This document shows, piece by piece, positions 17,308 to 64,000 of a stretch of DNA of 64,000 nt. Location of the stretch: the sequence record MH791411.1. One strand, written 5' to 3'. The position numbers and the translations under genes are program-made. This stretch comes from Escherichia phage Ecwhy_1. The notes beneath the pieces were generated by a model. The model worked only from the letters and a program-made list of their open reading frames with translations. It did not search any database and had not been told where the DNA came from. Within the stretch, counting starts at the first letter, position 1. The number at the start of each line of letters is the position of its first letter.

Positions 17308-18404
17308 ACCCCAATTAGTGGGATACCTGTTATATTAAGTAGAACCGATGCTTGAAGCTTAACTGACTCACCTGCCGAAAGGTTGTTTACTATACCATCG
17401 ACGCGGAACCCTAAGTTTTTATTAGAGTTAAGAGAGTTAACCACCCAGTTTTCGTAATCCGCTTTTGTAATACCATTCGGATTTGGGAGAGTTGGGTCAA
17501 CACCATTAATTACCATAGATACATCCCAATTAGGGCGACTACTTGTAATTACATCCTTGATTGATTCTAGTTGTGTTATGCGACGTGGGTCTGGAATCTG
17601 ACTTGCACCAATTGAACCAGGAACAAATGTACCTTGGTTATCAACATAGAACTGACCTTTAATGAAAAATGTTTTTGAATTATACGGAAGAGAAACAATT
17701 TCACCTGATGAATCACTAACTTCACGAATCATAATTTTCAATTCATAAAAATAGTTACTACCAAATTCAAACACACCAGTACCATTTGTAAATGTTGTCC
17801 AGTTATTTGAATCAACCTGTGAAGTACCACCCATATTGAAGTACGCTAATGGCTTAGTACTGTTACTTTGTGTAAATTCAATATATTTCTTACCTGTATC
17901 ATAGTTGATATCAAGTAGTGTGGAGTACTCTTTATTTTCTGGACGAGATGTTTGAATTTCACGCCATTCTTTATTTTTCATTAGGACACGAAGGGAATCA
18001 CCATTACTGGTAAGAACCATACGACCCATAATACTATTTTCACCATCTGGTACTGTGTTGAAAATTGAAATCATTGGGATAGATGCCCAGTCAGCTTCAG
18101 ATGCAGTATCTACTGGCTGACGAGCATTATCAACTAATGCAAGAAGTAGTTCGCCAGTGTTGCCAGTATTTCTGTACCAAATCTGACCATTAACGTTACC
18201 ACGAGGTGCAGTAGCTCCACTGAAGTTCTCAACCAAGTGGAGGAAGTTTTCGTTCCATGCTTGACCGTAACCAACTTTATTTCGACCTGCAAAGTTTAAC
18301 GGTACTGGGTTACTACCAGGTTGGTTTGGTCCTAATATTACGTTATTTGGAATGGTAGCATAAACGCTACCATTACTTCTATAAATTGTATAACTTACAC
18401 TCAT
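17304..18404 (-). CDS. Hypothetical structural protein (tail/baseplate candidate)
   Basis: 366-aa ORF, first of three tightly packed minus-strand ORFs (366/202/165 aa) separated by 9-12 nt. Asn/Gly/Thr-rich beta-type composition. Confidence 0.55.
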   Translation of the reverse strand: MSVSYTIYRSNGSVYATIPNNVILGPNQPGSNPVPLNFAGRNKVGYGQAWNENFLHLVENFSGATAPRGNVNGQIWYRNTGNTGELLLALVDNARQPVDTASEADWASIPMISIFNTVPDGENSIMGRMVLTSNGDSLRVLMKNKEWREIQTSRPENKEYSTLLDINYDTGKKYIEFTQSNSTKPLAYFNMGGTSQVDSNNWTTFTNGTGVFEFGSNYFYELKIMIREVSDSSGEIVSLPYNSKTFFIKGQFYVDNQGTFVPGSIGASQIPDPRRITQLESIKDVITSSRPNWDVSMVINGVDPTLPNPNGITKADYENWVVNSLNSNKNLGFRVDGIVNNLSAGESVKLQASVLLNITGIPLIGV

Positions 18405-50743: not shown

Positions 50744-51430
50744 TTAATTTTCGTAGAAGTTACTATCTGGTAGAGTAGTACTACTAATGTTGGTTTGTGC
50801 ACCACTAATAGAGGTAGCAGTGGATGGGTTACCGAAACCAGTAATTTCATCACCGAACGCTTCACCATTAGGACCGAGTTTTGCACAGCCGTCTGGTTGA
50901 ATTGTCATAGAAATAACTTGTGCTTCACTTGAGGAATAATCCCAGTCACCAAAGTTACTAGATTCGATAAAGCAGCCTTGACATACCCAAGTACTCAAAG
51001 TACCTTCAAAAAGGTTAGAAGTGTTTTCACTATTGGAGCCATCTAGCTCTTGAATCCACATTTCAAATTTGAACTGGGAATCAGTCATACGAGATTCTTG
51101 ACTGTAATAGTTAAATTCTTTACGCATTTGGTTATAAAGAGCTTTAGCAGAAGCATTACCAACTGAATCACGGAAAGCCACATCAATAGTATCCCAAGTA
51201 TACTTACCTTTATAGTGAGCAGAACTGTTATAACTATGCACAGTGACGTTTTCATGTGATACAGATACAGCACCAACGGTGTTGGTATCTAGGGTAATCA
51301 TATTGCCATCGTCGTTAGCACCGAAGCCAAAGAAAACAACACGGAATTTATATTTTGCTTTAGGTTGTTTCATAGAGATACGACCACCGCCAGCGAGCGG
51401 AACGCCATATCGATCAAGCATTGTAGCCAT
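50744..51430 (-). CDS. Tail tube-like protein, paralog 1
   Basis: Paralog of the 258-aa protein. First structural gene after the sheath, with its own upstream AT-rich promoter-like element (gataaataatataaag) and RBS caggagaatataaATG. Confidence 0.5.
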   Translation of the reverse strand: MATMLDRYGVPLAGGGRISMKQPKAKYKFRVVFFGFGANDDGNMITLDTNTVGAVSVSHENVTVHSYNSSAHYKGKYTWDTIDVAFRDSVGNASAKALYNQMRKEFNYYSQESRMTDSQFKFEMWIQELDGSNSENTSNLFEGTLSTWVCQGCFIESSNFGDWDYSSSEAQVISMTIQPDGCAKLGPNGEAFGDEITGFGNPSTATSISGAQTNISSTTLPDSNFYEN

Positions 51431-51587
51431 TTATATTCTCCTGTTATGGAATGACATCTTTATATTATTTATCTATTACTTACACTTTTATTGAAGTATC
51501 TCATCAACAGGAAACCAATCTATATTCACACAATACAAGTACTTTTTTTCTTGTTTATGATCTGTATAGTTTACACCAACCGACCAT

Positions 51588-54481: not shown

Positions 54482-54575
54482 ATTAAATCCTCCAAAAATA
54501 ATTGGTTATTCGAATTATATTCGTATAGTCTTATTTATTGAAGGATTTGAATGTCAAGTCCTAATTGTTTTAATT

Positions 54576-60285: not shown

Positions 60286-60408
60286 TCATTCCCCCATCAA
60301 CCAATCACGTAGACGTTCCCAGAAGCCTTTTGGCTGATATTCTGGATATTCATATTCATCTGTTCCTTGCTCGGAAACACCCCAATCTTCTTCTAATACT
60401 GTAATCAC
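60286..60408 (-). CDS. Acidic micro-ORF A (40 aa), translationally coupled to cca
   Basis: Not in the ORF track (below its length cutoff). GGAGG-cattGTG start. Translation VITVLEEDWGVSEQGTDEYEYPEYQPKGFWERLRDWLMGE. Stop TGA lies 1 nt before the cca ATG. A paralog sits at 61418-61543. Confidence 0.4.
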   Translation of the reverse strand: MITVLEEDWGVSEQGTDEYEYPEYQPKGFWERLRDWLMGE

Positions 60409-60419
60409 AATGCCTCCAA

Positions 60420-60857
60420 TTAAATTAATCTATCACGTAGACGGTCGTAATATTTTGCATGTATATCTAGTATACACTGAAATGATGGATAGTCAATACT
60501 AAATGTATCATCAATGAACATGTACTGAAGAAGTGTTTCTGGTCCATTATCAACAACTGGTAATGTCCCTTCTTTTTTTGATAGGGTGTGCCACATCAAC
60601 TCACTTTCAATATGGTGAGTTGCGTATGTCAATTCAATCTTACTTTTTCGTAGTAAAATTAACAATTCATCATTGTCATCGAGTGCATTACGAAATTTAA
60701 TACGAACTGTACCCTGGAAATTATTAGTGTACATAACACGATGATGATTGTATGAAATTAAACCACGTCTTTCAGTACTGATTTCATGTTCAGCAAAGTA
60801 CTTTAACGTTTCATTAAATTTTGGAATTTTACTTGCGTCCACCAATGTAATCCTCAT
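60420..60857 (-). CDS. Hypothetical protein (about 145 aa), paralog of the adjacent 137-aa protein
   Basis: Shares the motif LLQYMFIDDTFSIDY with YLQYQFIDDTFGFDF in the adjacent 137-aa gene. Confidence 0.5.
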   Translation of the reverse strand: MRITLVDASKIPKFNETLKYFAEHEISTERRGLISYNHHRVMYTNNFQGTVRIKFRNALDDNDELLILLRKSKIELTYATHHIESELMWHTLSKKEGTLPVVDNGPETLLQYMFIDDTFSIDYPSFQCILDIHAKYYDRLRDRLI

Positions 60858-61242
60858 ATACATGATATACGTTCATTATACTATTATATAGTTCAAAGTC
60901 AAATCCAAATGTGTCATCAATGAACTGGTATTGCAGATATTCTTCATATGAAGCATCAATTGGTAATGATCCAGCACGAATATCATCTGATTTAAAATCG
61001 TCAATGTATCTTAATGTTATGTCTTCATCAACAGTAATATCTATCATCAACGTATCGTCACTGTACCAAAGGTTATGTATACGGATGTAAAGTTTCTTAG
61101 CACGATTAAAACTAGATACATTGGTATTGCGATGGAGTTTATCTAAGTTGAAGTAAAAACCAGGCTCGTTTTTACTTATGTTTTTCATATGTTCTGCAAT
61201 CGAATCAATTATATAATCAATGTTGAATGTTCTCATAAACAA
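60829..61242 (-). CDS. Hypothetical protein (137 aa), paralog of the adjacent 145-aa protein
   Basis: Tandem duplicate. Its 3' end overlaps the start of the next gene by about 29 nt. Confidence 0.5.
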   Translation of the reverse strand: MFMRTFNIDYIIDSIAEHMKNISKNEPGFYFNLDKLHRNTNVSSFNRAKKLYIRIHNLWYSDDTLMIDITVDEDITLRYIDDFKSDDIRAGSLPIDASYEEYLQYQFIDDTFGFDFELYNSIMNVYHVYEDYIGGRK

Positions 61243-61418
61243 ATCTCATAGCGGTTTGTGTTTGGATTGTAGCAATAGGTATCATTAATTTTAACACCAG
61301 GTTTAAGTGTTATTGTTGTTCCTACTTCAGTACTGGGTTCTGCATCACAATAAATCATCACACCAACGCCACAGATTAAAGCTAAGATACAAATAATAGC
61401 ACATATTGTATATTCCAT
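61233..61418 (-). CDS. Small single-pass membrane protein (61 aa)
   Basis: MEYTICAIICILALICGVGVMIYCDAEP…: one hydrophobic helix followed by a Cys-containing soluble tail. SD gatGGGGGAGtgATG. The ORF-track start is a TTG 6 codons upstream. Confidence 0.45.
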   Translation of the reverse strand: MEYTICAIICILALICGVGVMIYCDAEPSTEVGTTITLKPGVKINDTYCYNPNTNRYEICL

Positions 61419-61543
61419 CACTCCCCCATCAGCCAATCAAAGAGACGTTCCAAGAAGCCATTAGGCTTGTATTCTGGTTCTTTGTTCACGTCGGTTTCTT
61501 GTTCATAAACACCCAAATCTTCTTCAAGTATAATTGTATTCAT
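61418..61543 (-). CDS. Acidic micro-ORF B (41 aa), paralog of micro-ORF A
   Basis: Not in the ORF track (below its length cutoff). MNTIILEEDLGVYEQETDVNKEPEYKPNGFLERLFDWLMGE. Its ATG overlaps the upstream TAA by 1 nt and its TGA overlaps the downstream ATG by 1 nt. Confidence 0.4.
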   Translation of the reverse strand: MNTIILEEDLGVYEQETDVNKEPEYKPNGFLERLFDWLMGE

Positions 61544-61926
61544 TATATATTATACTCTATTATACCATCATCACTTTCACCAGACAACCACTTAATGTAA
61601 TTTACTTTGTAGAAATTAATCAATGCATAAGTGCTGTACTCAATCAACAAGTGATCTCTCAAGAATTCGTCTTGAGCATATCCATCTTCATCCAAATCTG
61701 TTGGAATATCAGTTTCTTTGTCTTGAATGTGTAAAGTTATTGTGTCTTTTGTTATACAAATTGTTATATGATTACAAATAGTAATGATGATTATGCTATA
61801 TGTTCTATTGAAATATATTGTGAAATCTTCATTAATATTATATCTTCGACTTTCTTCATATTTCTGATATGGGTCGAAATGTGATAAATTAACTTTAATT
61901 AATGTATTTCTCAACTTACACCTCAA
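61544..61926 (-). CDS. Hypothetical protein (127 aa)
   Basis: ORF translationally coupled to micro-ORF B. Confidence 0.45.
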
Positions 61927-62307: not shown

Positions 62308-62327
62308 AATTAAAACTCCATAAGAAA

Positions 62328-62349
62328 AGGGACAGAATAATCTCTGTCC
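62328..62349 (-). terminator. Rho-independent terminator (minus strand)
   Basis: gggacaga-ataatc-tctgtccc, 8-bp stem with T/A-rich flanks, after the HPF gene. Confidence 0.65.
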
Positions 62350-62361
62350 CTTTATTATATC

Positions 62362-62694
62362 TTACTCTTCGTCTTCAGTCAAGTCTTCTTGAACTGGATG
62401 TTCGGGGTGGTTACGGCGATGCAATTTGATGCTTTTGTCTTTACCTAAGACAGTTTCCATTTTTTCAAATGAATCACCAATTGCTTTGTATAAATCTGCA
62501 TCATCGGCGGTGACAATCTTACCACCTGATGTTAAAGTTACGGAATATTGATTCTTATGCTCTTTCTTCACATGAACACCGATATAAAGTACTGAAGAAT
62601 CACTAAACTTCGTTAGTGCATTTGCTTCTGCATGAATCGCGTCATTGATTGCTGGAGTAATATCAACATTACCTTGGATAACTAAATCTAGCAT
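62362..62694 (-). CDS. hpf: Ribosome hibernation-promoting factor/RaiA family protein
   Basis: MLDLVIQGNVDITPAINDAIHAEANALTKF…VHVKKEHKNQYSVTLTSGGKIVTADDADLYKAIGDSFEKMETVLGKDKSIKLHRRNH is collinear with bacterial HPF (M.LNITG.HVEITPAL…L.V.G..I.A….D.Y.AID….KL.RQL.KHK). Confidence 0.7.
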   Translation of the reverse strand: MLDLVIQGNVDITPAINDAIHAEANALTKFSDSSVLYIGVHVKKEHKNQYSVTLTSGGKIVTADDADLYKAIGDSFEKMETVLGKDKSIKLHRRNHPEHPVQEDLTEDEE

Positions 62695-62719: not shown

Positions 62720-63646
62720 TTAAAGATTACTAACTAACAATTCTGCACGGTTTCCTACTTGACGATACCATAGAGAATTCTTAATTTCTTTTTTGAACTT
62801 GTTATTATTTTGATTATCAACGCTTTTCCATAATTTATTGAAAGTATTTAACTTATCAACTCCTAATGTAAATGCCATCTCAAATAAAATTCGTTGTTGT
62901 TCAGCCGTAAGGTTTGTTGCATTTCTTTTCTTCAATAATAAAACTAAATCATTATTAGTTCGTTCCATGTCAGACAATAAAAGTTTATGTGCTTGTGACT
63001 TCGTAATACCATTACGATACTTACTTGCATCTGATTCTTTCTTTCCAAGATAATGTCCGTACCCAATAGTGAAGTTACCTTTTATATCACGATACGGATA
63101 AAATTTAGAATTTCGATATGGAACTCCAACTTTCCCACCAAGTAAACGTCGTTTGTTCTTGGACTGAAATTCAATAGAACCTTCAGCTTCTTTGATGTGA
63201 TTGACAATTTCTGGATCTTTATAATCAAACAGTACAGTCACATCTGGTAACAATACGTGCTTCAAATCCTCTTTTGTTGGGATAAAGATACCCTGAGAAG
63301 TATGAAGAGTTGCATTTAAGTTGATGTTCTTCAACAAAATGACATAATCTTCAATCTGTACATTTTTAGGTTTAAATTTCTGTGCAATAGAATAATAACT
63401 ATCACCAGGTTGAACCGTATAATGTTTCTCGCTGCTTGGAACTGCTTTTGGTACTGACACCTGTGGTAGTTCCTGCTTTTGAATTTGCGTAACTTGTGGT
63501 TTTAAATTATGCACCTGACTTTCGTCTAATGATGATGCACGATCACTTTGAGAAAAACCATAAAATCCAATCGCAGCGAATAGGGCTGATGAAACTAATA
63601 CGCCTACGGCAATTTTAGTTTTCAGTTCTTTTTTCGCTTTTTTCAA
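62720..63646 (-). CDS. Peptidoglycan hydrolase: signal-anchor (SAR-like) + LysM + GH24 lysozyme
   Basis: Probable TTG start 4 nt after AAAGGAGG. The N-terminus then reads MKKAKKELKTKIAVGVLVSSALFAAIGFYGF, a basic n-region followed by a Gly/Ala/Ser-rich helix. LysM (YTVQPGDSYYSIAQKF). T4-lysozyme-like core (GNFTIGYGHYLG…ITKSQAHKLLLSDMERTNNDL…ILFEMAFTLG…SLWYRQVGNRAE). Confidence 0.75.
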   Translation of the reverse strand: MKKAKKELKTKIAVGVLVSSALFAAIGFYGFSQSDRASSLDESQVHNLKPQVTQIQKQELPQVSVPKAVPSSEKHYTVQPGDSYYSIAQKFKPKNVQIEDYVILLKNINLNATLHTSQGIFIPTKEDLKHVLLPDVTVLFDYKDPEIVNHIKEAEGSIEFQSKNKRRLLGGKVGVPYRNSKFYPYRDIKGNFTIGYGHYLGKKESDASKYRNGITKSQAHKLLLSDMERTNNDLVLLLKKRNATNLTAEQQRILFEMAFTLGVDKLNTFNKLWKSVDNQNNNKFKKEIKNSLWYRQVGNRAELLVSNL

Positions 63647-63762
63647 AACGCCTCCTTTGTTGGTTGTTAACAATGAGCAATCACAAAGAGGGCAAAGAGG
63701 CCATTTGCAAAAGCCTCATTGGACTTTCTACAGTACTCAGTTGTTCTTTGGAACATTTAAGT

Positions 63763-63790
63763 AGTATAGCATACTTTTTAGTTATATCAA
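63763..63790 (-). promoter_or_regulatory. Candidate sigma70 promoter TTGATA-N16-TATACT for the lysin gene
   Basis: Minus strand reads TTGATAtaactaaaaagtatgcTATACT, about 115 nt upstream of the lysin start. Confidence 0.35.
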
Positions 63791-63813
63791 GACCTATTTA
63801 CCAAATAACCACA

Positions 63814-64000
63814 TTAATCGTAGTATGTTCTACCAATGGTGATGTGATATTTGAAATATTTAGATGCCAAACCCAGTTCATTACGAATATGTGCAATGAA
63901 ATCATCTTCAAACTCTATGATAAAGAATGACCCAGGTTTCTTATTGTCTTTTACTTCTTCGATGAAAGGATCGAACTTAATCTTAACTTTCATACCATCG
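63814..64000 (-). CDS. Hypothetical protein, 5'-truncated by the window edge
   Basis: Open minus-strand frame from the window end to the TAA at 63814 (…FIIEFEDDFIAHIRNELGLASKYFKYHITIGRTYYD*). Only about 62 C-terminal residues are visible. Confidence 0.4.
   Translation of the reverse strand, partial: DGMKVKIKFDPFIEEVKDNKKPGSFFIIEFEDDFIAHIRNELGLASKYFKYHITIGRTYYD

Follow-up and report, generated by a model that had tools for sequence, protein, structure and literature searches.

Rak2-like jumbo phages carry three proteins with lysozyme domains, one of which has a predicted membrane anchor. We examined the gene for this protein in a 64,000-nucleotide window of Escherichia phage Ecwhy_1 (MH791411.1), where its coding sequence occupies positions 62720..63646 of the (-) strand and specifies 308 aa plus stop. 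The source of the window is an Asteriusvirus, a Rak2-like jumbo coliphage, and the gene product is the previously described membrane-anchored LysM and T4-type lysozyme of this phage group. In 2017, Buttimer et al. (PMC5259590) reported the anchor/LysM/lysozyme architecture, and the idea of signal-arrest-release (SAR), for CBB_187, GAP32 gp180, 121Q gp532 and RaK2 gp506. These four are orthologues of the window protein (50-81% identity over the full length) and share with it the N-terminal transmembrane helix, a weak LysM domain, a C-terminal T4-type lysozyme and the gene neighbourhood, with no essential difference between them. Both the architecture and the SAR idea were therefore already known, and our analysis is a rediscovery of a published prediction together with a correct re-reading of the gene start. 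What it newly adds is the conservation of a non-ATG start codon, the family-wide variation in helix hydrophobicity and a conserved element in the 5' leader. Our overall model, to which we assign a probability of roughly 0.55, is that the gene encodes an exported peptidoglycan hydrolase with an uncleaved membrane anchor, most likely one of the lysis enzymes of the phage.

The start codon of the lysozyme gene

Mechanical prediction placed the open reading frame at 62720..63673 (-), a product of 317 aa that itself begins at a TTG (63671..63673). An earlier note on this DNA had argued that such a reading translates the ribosome-binding site as KGG, and indeed codons 6-8 of the long frame, AAA-GGA-GGC, are the Shine-Dalgarno (SD) site itself (AAAGGAGG; 63651..63658, (-)). 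This site stands 4 nt (cgtt) before a second TTG at 63646..63644, which the same note had taken as the true start. Orthologue annotation, codon conservation and profile alignment all agree with that choice. A 927-nt CDS beginning at the downstream TTG is annotated in UE-S1, 121Q, fEgEco12 and phAPEC6 (GenBank), and positions 2-311 (of 311) of the PHROG 15410 profile align to residues 11-317 of the long frame. The upstream in-frame TTG, which we regard as spurious, lacks both an SD site and conservation: the codon is GTC in UE-S1 and ATC in 121Q. Judged from these comparisons, the translation start is TTG 63646.

The use of a non-ATG codon is itself shared among relatives. The equivalent start is TTG in loci from three genera (Asteriusvirus, Mimasvirus and Eneladusvirus), GTG in Munch-like loci and one further locus (L025), and ATG in RaK2 only, while the spacing of GGAGG, 4 nt and TTG is also found in the GAP32-like and Eneladusvirus loci. 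Because 66 of the 71 annotated starts in a 50-kb stretch of fEgEco12, a 93%-identical phage, are ATG, a conserved non-ATG start is not background.

Architecture of the anchored lysozyme

Read from TTG 63646, the protein opens with the textbook n-region and h-region that had been described for it. Residues 1-11 (63614..63646, (-)), MKKAKKELKTK, form a tail of six Lys and one Glu among other residues (net +5) that is predicted to be cytoplasmic. Residues 12-31 (63554..63613, (-)), IAVGVLVSSALFAAIGFYGF, are 20 uncharged residues followed by an acidic flank; from its sequence, this hydrophobic helix is a likely signal anchor or possible SAR domain, and AlphaFold places a helix at residues 3-24 with low confidence. 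By the positive-inside rule, the anchor would have its N-terminus inside and its C-terminus outside. It is followed by a Gln/Ser/Pro/Val-rich linker of ~41 aa (residues 32-72; 63431..63553, (-)) that is predicted to be disordered, with pLDDT <50 for residues 5-71.

A divergent LysM domain with the beta-alpha-alpha-beta order occupies residues 73-123 (63278..63430, (-)) and is predicted to be the wall-binding module. The PF01476 match in the window protein is marginal and partial (21.4 bits, the cut-off being 20.9, over 17/43 profile positions); 16 of the 27 family members match at E<=0.01, the best at 1.3e-6. The fold is modelled by AlphaFold at pLDDT >90, with strands at 75-77 and 119-121 on either side of helices at 84-91 and 98-108. 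Residues ~60-125 match 344 proteins, many of them through 4-10 repeated stretches.

The C-terminal part, residues 145-308 (62723..63214, (-)), is a T4-type lysozyme (GH24) domain. It matches Phage_lysozyme PF00959 at E=1.4e-9 (38.8 bits against a cut-off of 22.3), as do all 27 aligned family members at their own scores, and E155 (63182-63184), G156, D187 (63086-63088) and T193 (63068-63070) are invariant in the 27 sequences, the Glu, Asp and Thr being counterparts of T4L E11, D20 and T26. In a profile search against solved structures, T4 lysozyme was matched with E=4e-16, the alignment beginning at T4L residue 18 and setting YkD..G.yTigYGH against T4L residues 18-31; the Glu was assigned from the EG motif and from the N-terminal helix 145-156 of the model. 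Confidence in the AlphaFold model is high over residues 72-308 (pLDDT >90), and in a Foldseek comparison with the PDB the T4 lysozyme entries ranked first (probability 1.0; target TM-score ~0.6). Profile and model together predict a muramidase with the T4 lysozyme fold and intact catalytic residues, so that the succession of LysM domain and GH24 core proposed in the earlier note holds up. No paralogous lysozyme was found in the window by tblastn.

The best solved-structure match, the T4 lysozyme encoded by gene e, has this fold and the catalytic Glu/Asp/Thr in common with the window protein, but it is a soluble 164-aa enzyme that needs the T holin, whereas the window protein adds an anchor, a linker, a LysM domain and ~21 residues inserted between the catalytic Glu and Asp. 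Viral relatives with the same insertion include soluble forms of ~150 aa as well as forms, on unrelated contigs, with N-terminal Gly/Ala/Ser-rich hydrophobic segments. Since such segments recur in unrelated viral contigs, export of this lysozyme subtype seems to be recurrent. KZ144 and EL188 likewise carry a wall-binding module ahead of the catalytic domain, an uncommon order among phages that infect Gram-negative hosts (PMC5259590); in those enzymes the binding domain is not LysM, there is no membrane anchor and the catalytic family is another one.

Proposed export, tethering and role in lysis

In our preferred model, translation would start at TTG 63646 behind its strong SD site, the Lys-rich tail would remain cytoplasmic and the 20-residue uncharged helix would insert via Sec as an uncleaved N-in/C-out anchor. 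The flexible linker of ~41 residues would present the LysM domain and the T4-type muramidase on the periplasmic side, where the anchored enzyme could cut peptidoglycan without holin-made holes. The catalytic domain lies 113 residues beyond the helix (disordered linker, LysM and spacer), and the tethered enzyme could plausibly reach the wall without release. Like its orthologue CBB_187, for which such a role was proposed (PMC5259590), the protein is most likely one of the lysis enzymes of the phage.

With regard to timing, it is close to an even bet that the enzyme stays tethered and acts by dosage, a mode in keeping with the conserved weak start codon; the trigger could also be a collapse of the membrane potential. 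We consider it possible, if only tentatively, that timing comes from SAR-like release on depolarisation, in which any holin would suffice, and improbable that it comes from signal-peptidase cleavage. Were the timing to be shown, it would widen the known modes of lysis control in phages of Gram-negative hosts and guide the choice among lysozymes for phage therapy and enzybiotics.

A true SAR endolysin would have a marginal helix and a tethered enzyme restrained until depolarisation by a pinholin or holin released and activated it. We regard this as unlikely for the window protein, although its helix has the composition that led the earlier note to draw the comparison. Gly/Ala/Ser/Thr make up 47% of the best 19-residue window, and the sum on a Hessa-type hydrophobicity scale is +1.15, marginally hydrophobic and in the range of P1 Lyz (+0.46) and R21 (+0.78). 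P1 Lyz and R21 likewise place an N-terminal hydrophobic helix before a GH24 lysozyme. The resemblance is not kept by the family, whose medians are 0.06 for the sum and 37% for Gly/Ala/Ser/Thr; the sums of full-length members range from ~-3.0 to +5, the Leu/Phe-rich helices of many orthologues reaching the lower end. In favour of SAR behaviour, the orthologues were proposed to use a signal-arrest system, and CBB_187 is reported, as data not shown, to inhibit growth of E. coli on induction (PMC5259590), a hint of holin-independent toxicity in an orthologue.

The anatomy argues the other way. The helix of P1 Lyz and R21 leads straight into the catalytic domain, and activation involves the helix or a cysteine, whereas in the window protein 113 residues with a disordered linker intervene and tethering gives no obvious restraint. 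P1-type caging is excluded because the protein has no cysteine, and with zero cysteines and this spacing we found nothing that would inactivate the tethered form in the P1 or R21 manner. Release would require six lysines of the 11-residue tail to pass through the membrane, a larger number than is known from classical SAR endolysins. A membrane lysozyme tethered by a long linker and a LysM domain does not fit the mechanics of those enzymes, and SAR behaviour is doubtful on these grounds.

Nor did the neighbourhood supply a partner. No pinholin-like small two-helix gene was found near the lysozyme gene, and within the window no holin lies adjacent to it, as had been noted. The 61-aa ORF at 61233-61418 was considered as a pinholin or holin and set aside, its only match being PHROG 4189, which has no assigned function. 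The same applies to a conserved 43-aa tail-anchored protein encoded upstream in relatives (fEgEco12 g272; PHROG 37784, unknown function), to which the small tail-anchored proteins GAP32_177 and Munch_211 are similar. Among the ORFs around two loci of distant exported relatives (L027 and L030), we recognised neither a holin nor a spanin. The pinholin partner that the earlier note had envisaged is not required by the data; fEgEco12 has a 220-aa holin candidate whose topology is like that of T4 T and, elsewhere in its genome, a separated spanin pair.

If the helix were instead a cleavable Sec signal peptide, the mature LysM-lysozyme would be a classical secreted enzyme, soluble in the periplasm. 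The layout of n-region and h-region resembles a signal peptide, and the helix of many orthologues contains an AAA run. Yet the uncharged stretch, ~17-20 residues across the family, is anchor-like and not a typical h-region, the residues past the AAA run stay hydrophobic (IGFxGF), the run is LFAA in the window protein, and the family alignment contains no conserved small-x-small motif after the helix, all of which makes cleavage a poor prospect. Lys44 of the oenococcal phage fOg44, which infects a Gram-positive host, is a secreted endolysin with a cleavable signal peptide. It is like the window protein in that Sec-dependent export would precede lysis and activity may be held until the membrane potential collapses, and the window protein differs from it in a hydrophobic stretch of anchor length without a conserved cleavage site.

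A rather unlikely alternative, to be taken seriously all the same, is that the anchored protein is not the lysis endolysin and has an accessory periplasmic role, for example in wall remodelling during a long infection or in action against competitors. Lysis would then proceed as in T4, by a T-type holin, a soluble lysozyme and separated spanins, and candidates for all of these are present in fEgEco12. The product of its g406 (220 aa) has a single transmembrane helix at the N-terminus and a large domain at the C-terminus; g331 encodes a soluble lysozyme of 162 aa (PF00959); and g251 gives a match to PHROG 1152 (Rz-like spanin) at E=1e-27, with a lipoprotein encoded by the next gene. These proteins together could amount to a full T4-style lysis system in which the anchored lysozyme has no part. 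The UE-S1 orthologue of the 162-aa lysozyme is muralytic in vitro, and LysUE1 is a paralogue distinct from the LysM lysozyme (PMC12805682). Also in line with an accessory role, the promoter candidate of the gene is of early type, a late-promoter motif is lacking, and in the various genera the gene is surrounded by tk, nudE, grx, cca and hpf. Against it, the holin assignment of g406 is weak (the authors' HHpred match to the T4 holin structure 6PX4 has a probability of 89.9% and E=2.6, and there is no Pfam match), and g331 lies between gp25-like and gp5-like baseplate genes and may be tail-related. The accessory function has no direct support, and an exported active muramidase is lytic by nature.

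Finally, as the earlier note also considered, the protein could be a wall hydrolase that the virion carries for use at infection. Some GenBank records (for example Munch and G17) name orthologues tail lysozyme or baseplate hub, and PHROGs match weakly over the lysozyme parts of tail and internal virion proteins; the names in the records rest on the shared lysozyme domain only. The phAPEC6 orthologue, Gp293, was not detected by virion mass spectrometry (PMC7247149), and the table of CBB structural proteins (PMC5259590) does not list CBB_187, whereas the 96-kDa gp5-like hub lysozyme was detected in virion proteomes. An N-terminal membrane anchor would moreover be unexpected in a tail component, and we consider a virion role very unlikely.

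Transcription and the 5' leader

A candidate sigma-70-like promoter, TTGATA-16-TATACT with TG (63763..63790, (-)), matches the consensus and has counterparts at the same position in UE-S1, 121Q and RaK2. Since the number of sigma-70-like sites equals the shuffle expectation, its support comes from position and conservation. A late promoter was considered and rejected: TATAAATA is absent from the window, and the ATAAATA late-promoter motif occurs upstream of structural genes in the window and not upstream of the lysozyme gene. A dedicated late lysis gene would not usually have a sigma-70-like promoter without ATAAATA; T4 gene e, like the window gene, also lies in an early-type region, away from other lysis genes. 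We found no usable transcriptome paper on the timing of the lysozyme gene.

The 5' leader contains a conserved element with two hairpins (63693..63731, (-)). In it, GUAGAAAGUC (63731..63722) can pair with its complement GGCUUUUGC (63715..63707), GAGGC (63717..63713) and GCCUC (63701..63697) make up an alternative hairpin that overlaps the first, and the segment GCCUCUUUG (63701..63693) is complementary to the SD region. The two-hairpin leader is kept in at least five lineages of Rak2-like phages and within the window is unique to the lysozyme gene, the exact motif occurring once. The stem formed by GUAGAAAGUC, with GRCUUUGUGC, is almost invariant, and the other stem shows compensatory changes. 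Outside the window, 45 matches to the motif in viral contigs are about the chance expectation for 16-17 specified bases, the recognisable ones being the same Rak2-like contigs, and an Rfam scan of 63500-64000 at E<=1 returned only a chance RsaD match far below threshold.

It is conceivable, though we would not expect it, that leader pairing and the conserved non-ATG start place the lysozyme gene under gene-specific post-transcriptional control. Mutually exclusive leader pairings, one of them covering the SD region, might then form a timing device comparable in function to translational masking in T4 gene e, and together with the non-ATG start would cause an early-transcribed, exported and intrinsically lytic muramidase to build up slowly or late. 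In eight leaders, the minimum-free-energy fold places the SD region in a paired state. We do not claim that the leader masks the SD site: the folding energy of the window leader is unremarkable (z=-0.89, with 41/200 shuffles folding as well), and its SD pairing probability ranks 19th of the 29 SD-start sites in the window.

Downstream of the lysozyme gene lies an HPF/RaiA-like gene (62362..62694, (-)), with no terminator-like site between the two, and they are probably co-transcribed. A terminator-like hairpin at 62326..62353 (-) would close this lysozyme-HPF unit, and a terminator is annotated at the equivalent place in UE-S1.

A predicted anchored lysozyme with a conserved non-ATG start

The lysozyme gene (62720..63646, minus strand; 308 aa) encodes a typical member of an already known protein family of Rak2-like phages. 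The window DNA shares 96% identity with Escherichia virus TH47, 93% with fEgEco12, and 83% with 121Q and PBECO4, all of them Asteriusvirus genomes of Rak2-like jumbo myophages (~350 kb). In phage CBB, the orthologue CBB_187 is the predicted endolysin, with homologues GAP32 gp180, 121Q gp532, and RaK2 gp506. Its published description gives it a transmembrane domain at the N-terminus, a weak LysM, and a lysozyme at the C-terminus, invokes signal arrest as in P1 Lyz and phiKMV gp45, and notes that E. coli growth was inhibited on its induction (data not shown; Buttimer et al., 2017, PMC5259590). Interpretation of the N-terminus as an anchor or signal-arrest-release (SAR) element was therefore already published, in silico, for these orthologues. 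A search of 5.8 billion proteins returned 77 full-length relatives, all ~300–320 aa (a few truncated) and many on ~350-kb contigs.

The mechanical ORF call begins at an upstream TTG (63673..62720, minus strand; 317 aa). On the coding strand this region reads ...ttg tta aca acc aac AAA GGA GGc gtt TTG aaa aaa gcg..., and the earlier note was exact in observing that the long ORF translates its own ribosome-binding site as K-G-G, with AAA GGA GGc in frame. Its proposal that translation initiates at the in-frame TTG (63646..63644, minus strand), 4 nt past the Shine-Dalgarno (SD) site AAAGGAGG (63658..63651, minus strand), is backed by GenBank annotations, codon conservation, and the alignment to PHROG 15410. 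Four GenBank records (UE-S1, 121Q, fEgEco12, and phAPEC6) annotate a 927-nt CDS from this codon, and positions 2–311/311 of PHROG 15410 match residues 11–317 of the long ORF. No SD site precedes the upstream TTG, which is not kept either, being GTC in UE-S1 and ATC in 121Q. In another 18 full-length loci taken from viral contigs, TTG occupies the equivalent position in Asteriusvirus, GAP32-like, and Eneladusvirus sequences, always arranged as GGAGG, 4 nt, and TTG; Munch-like loci and one further locus, L025, have GTG instead, and RaK2 alone has ATG. Since ATG accounts for 66 of the 71 annotated starts in a 50-kb stretch of fEgEco12, the phage with 93% identity to the window, and the TTG or GTG is kept, the non-ATG start is a conserved peculiarity of the lysozyme gene. 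SD-to-start spacing in the same 50 kb peaks at 6–8 nt. For an extended UAAGGAGG-type site, 4 nt is reportedly still a workable spacing.

The reading of the remainder as LysM plus a T4-type (GH24) lysozyme core also held, with Pfam, invariant catalytic residues, AlphaFold, and Foldseek in agreement, and the Pfam LysM match in the window protein marginal and partial. The Phage_lysozyme match had E=1.4e-9; PF01476 was matched by 16 of 27 family members, and residues ~60–125 gave several hundred protein matches via 4–10 repeated stretches. E155, G156, D187, T193, Y196, and G197 are invariant in the 27-relative alignment. The top solved structure in the profile search was T4 lysozyme (E=4e-16), with YkD..G.yTigYGH matched against T4L residues 18–31, so that D187 corresponds to D20 and T193 to T26; the EG motif closing helix 145–156 is the counterpart of E11, and the Glu-to-Asp interval holds ~21 extra residues. 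The AlphaFold model (pLDDT >90 at residues 72–308 and <50 at 5–71) contains a beta-alpha-alpha-beta unit at 75–121 followed by a lysozyme fold, for which Foldseek against the PDB returned T4 lysozyme entries (probability 1.0). No further lysozyme domain was found elsewhere in the window. The lysozyme subtype with the ~21-residue Glu-Asp insertion (EG..YQ....NGKFYPY.D) also occurs in the viral contigs L027, L030, L046, and L028–L043 (23–47 kb, where length was noted), either as soluble forms of ~150 aa or fused to N-terminal Gly/Ala/Ser-rich hydrophobic segments and linkers.

Release or tethering of the enzyme

The N-terminal tail MKKAKKELKTK (six Lys, one Glu) is followed by 20 uncharged residues, IAVGVLVSSALFAAIGFYGF, and then by SQSDRASSLDES. 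Application of the positive-inside rule to this Lys-rich tail predicts an N-in/C-out topology, which would put LysM and lysozyme on the periplasmic side. With Hessa scale values simply added up over the best stretch of 19 residues, the window protein helix reached +1.15 (Gly/Ala/Ser/Thr 47%), P1 Lyz +0.46 (53%), R21 +0.78 (63%), the lambda Rz anchor -2.46 (32%), and the family median 0.06 (37%), with full-length family members ranging from about -3.0 to +5.

The helix of the window protein is thus weakly hydrophobic and SAR-like in composition, a likeness in composition that the earlier note had pointed out. However, weak hydrophobicity is not shared family-wide, and the family consensus helix is Leu/Phe-rich (LLVGFLLLAAAIGF), so the SAR-like composition belongs to the window's own clade rather than being a conserved property. 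The family alignment contains no conserved small-x-small site after the helix. In P1 Lyz and R21, both mechanistically understood SAR types, the catalytic domain directly follows the helix, and the helix or a cysteine takes part in switching it; the window protein, in contrast, has no cysteine and has 113 residues between helix and catalytic domain, comprising a ~41-residue disordered linker, LysM, and a 21-residue spacer. Release would furthermore require the 11-residue tail with its six lysines to be carried across the membrane. Fully extended, the linker would be on the order of the membrane-to-wall distance, and the tethered enzyme may therefore act without release. These features lower the probability that the window protein is a SAR endolysin to about one in three, and its activity may be controlled by tethering, release, or cleavage. 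The interpretation in the earlier note is supported in part.

Its presumed pinholin partner is required by no observation, and fEgEco12 contains a T-like holin candidate, a soluble lysozyme, and spanins among four lysis-relevant genes outside the range of the window (g251, g252, g406, and g331). g251 matches Rz-like spanin PHROG 1152 (E=1e-27) and is directly followed by g252, with the lipobox LISGC; both lie ~9 kb upstream on the same strand, in line with PMC6139136, which lists separated spanins for PBECO4 and 121Q. g406 (220 aa) has a single transmembrane helix at the N-terminus and a large domain at the C-terminus; HHpred by the fEgEco12 authors matched it to the T4 holin structure 6PX4 (probability 89.9%, E=2.6), and Pfam did not confirm it as a holin. 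g331, a soluble 162-aa lysozyme, is flanked by a gp25-like gene and an 887-aa gp5-like hub, and its UE-S1 orthologue, LysUE1, is muralytic in vitro (PMC12805682). Given these candidates, holin, soluble lysozyme, and spanins may form a T4-style set that exists in parallel to the anchored lysozyme.

The 61-aa protein at 61233–61418 (minus strand), with a Cys-rich N-terminal hydrophobic segment (MEYTICAIICILALICGVGVMIYC...), found no support as a holin, its sole match being PHROG 4189, of unannotated function. In Asteriusvirus, GAP32, and Munch, genes for small tail-anchored proteins (43–46 aa, C-terminal hydrophobic segment) stand upstream of the lysozyme, a few genes away: fEgEco12 g272, just past the window end (17349–17480 in the fEgEco12 stretch L007), which matches PHROG 37784, of unannotated function, and others at 1654–1794 in locus L003 and 1746–1886 in L005.

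As to the virion, CBB_187 is not among the entries of the CBB structural proteome table (PMC5259590). The orthologue in phAPEC6, Gp293, went undetected in virion mass spectrometry (PMC7247149). Some orthologue records call the protein tail lysozyme or baseplate hub, which reflects the shared lysozyme domain only.

Expression, leader and gene neighbourhood

A sigma-70-like promoter candidate, TTGATA-16-TATACT with a TG, lies at 63790..63763 (minus strand) and has counterparts in UE-S1 (TTGACT...TATAAT), 121Q, and RaK2 (TTGACA-17-TAAAAT). Shuffled sequence would be expected to give as many such matches as the 3-kb region does, so it is position and conservation that support the candidate. ATAAATA, proposed as a late promoter of Rak2-like phages (PMC5259590), is depleted in the window (10 sites observed vs 25 expected; TATAAATA, 0 vs 7). 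It is found 36–51 nt before the gene starts at 51430 and 54481 (e.g. 51466–51472 and 54532–54538, minus strand), a placement before structural-gene starts that fits the proposed role, and is absent upstream of the lysozyme gene. Directly downstream, and apparently co-transcribed, is an HPF/RaiA-like ribosome hibernation factor (62362–62694, minus strand); no terminator-like site separates the two genes, and a terminator-like hairpin after HPF (62353..62326, minus strand) closes the unit. With a sigma-70-like site present and ATAAATA absent upstream of the lysozyme, the unit looks early or middle, not late.

The stretch that separates the promoter candidate from the SD site contains, in all lineages, GTAGAAAGTCC (63732..63721, minus strand; its sole occurrence in the window), directly followed by G(A/C)GGCTTTGTGC. 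This lies in a two-hairpin leader (63693–63760, minus strand) kept in at least five lineages of Rak2-like phages (also loci L003–L006 and L009–L023). The long stem identified by RNAalifold, GUAGAAAGUC with GRCUUUGUGC (9 pairs), is almost invariant; a short upstream hairpin is present in most lineages, with compensatory stem changes (TAGTA/TACTA, TAGTC/GACTA, TTAACTC/GAGTTAA, TAGTAC/GTACTA, and CAGTAT/ATACTG), and is degenerate in the window's own clade. Across 16 sequences, 93.8% of cells pair vs 28–50% with partners slid, and the observed covariation score was reached by 0/500 shuffles. Because these sequences represent no more than some five clades and variation in the long stem is slight, the covariation is suggestive of conserved hairpins rather than proof. 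An alternative hairpin, GAGGC with GCCUC, overlaps the 3' arm of the long stem, and its own 3' arm, GCCUCUUUG, is complementary to the SD region; thermodynamic tests of SD masking by the leader were negative. The leader had no match in Rfam.

The gene neighbourhood is kept in five lineages (Asteriusvirus, Mimasvirus, Eneladusvirus, Alcyoneusvirus, and the unclassified phage Munch), in the order lysozyme, HPF/RaiA-like gene (in most lineages), CCA-adding enzyme, Nudix hydrolase, and glutaredoxin, with thymidine kinase upstream of the lysozyme in Asteriusvirus and RaK2 loci. The upstream neighbour, an ORF cut by the window end (63814–64000, minus strand), is 2H-phosphoesterase-like, with two HxT/S motifs and a weak Pfam 2H-SAK match; its HHpred match, according to the fEgEco12 authors, is the anti-CBASS nuclease Acb1 (7T26, probability 97.6%). 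Farther downstream, an apparent repeated two-gene module (60286–61926, minus strand) pairs a very acidic ~40-aa protein (60286–60408 and 61418–61543, minus strand; both ending ...ERL.DWLMGE) with a ~125–147-aa protein (60420–60863 and 60829–61242, minus strand) bearing a Q(Y/F)xFIDDTF motif, and a related motif also occurs in RaK2 gp505.
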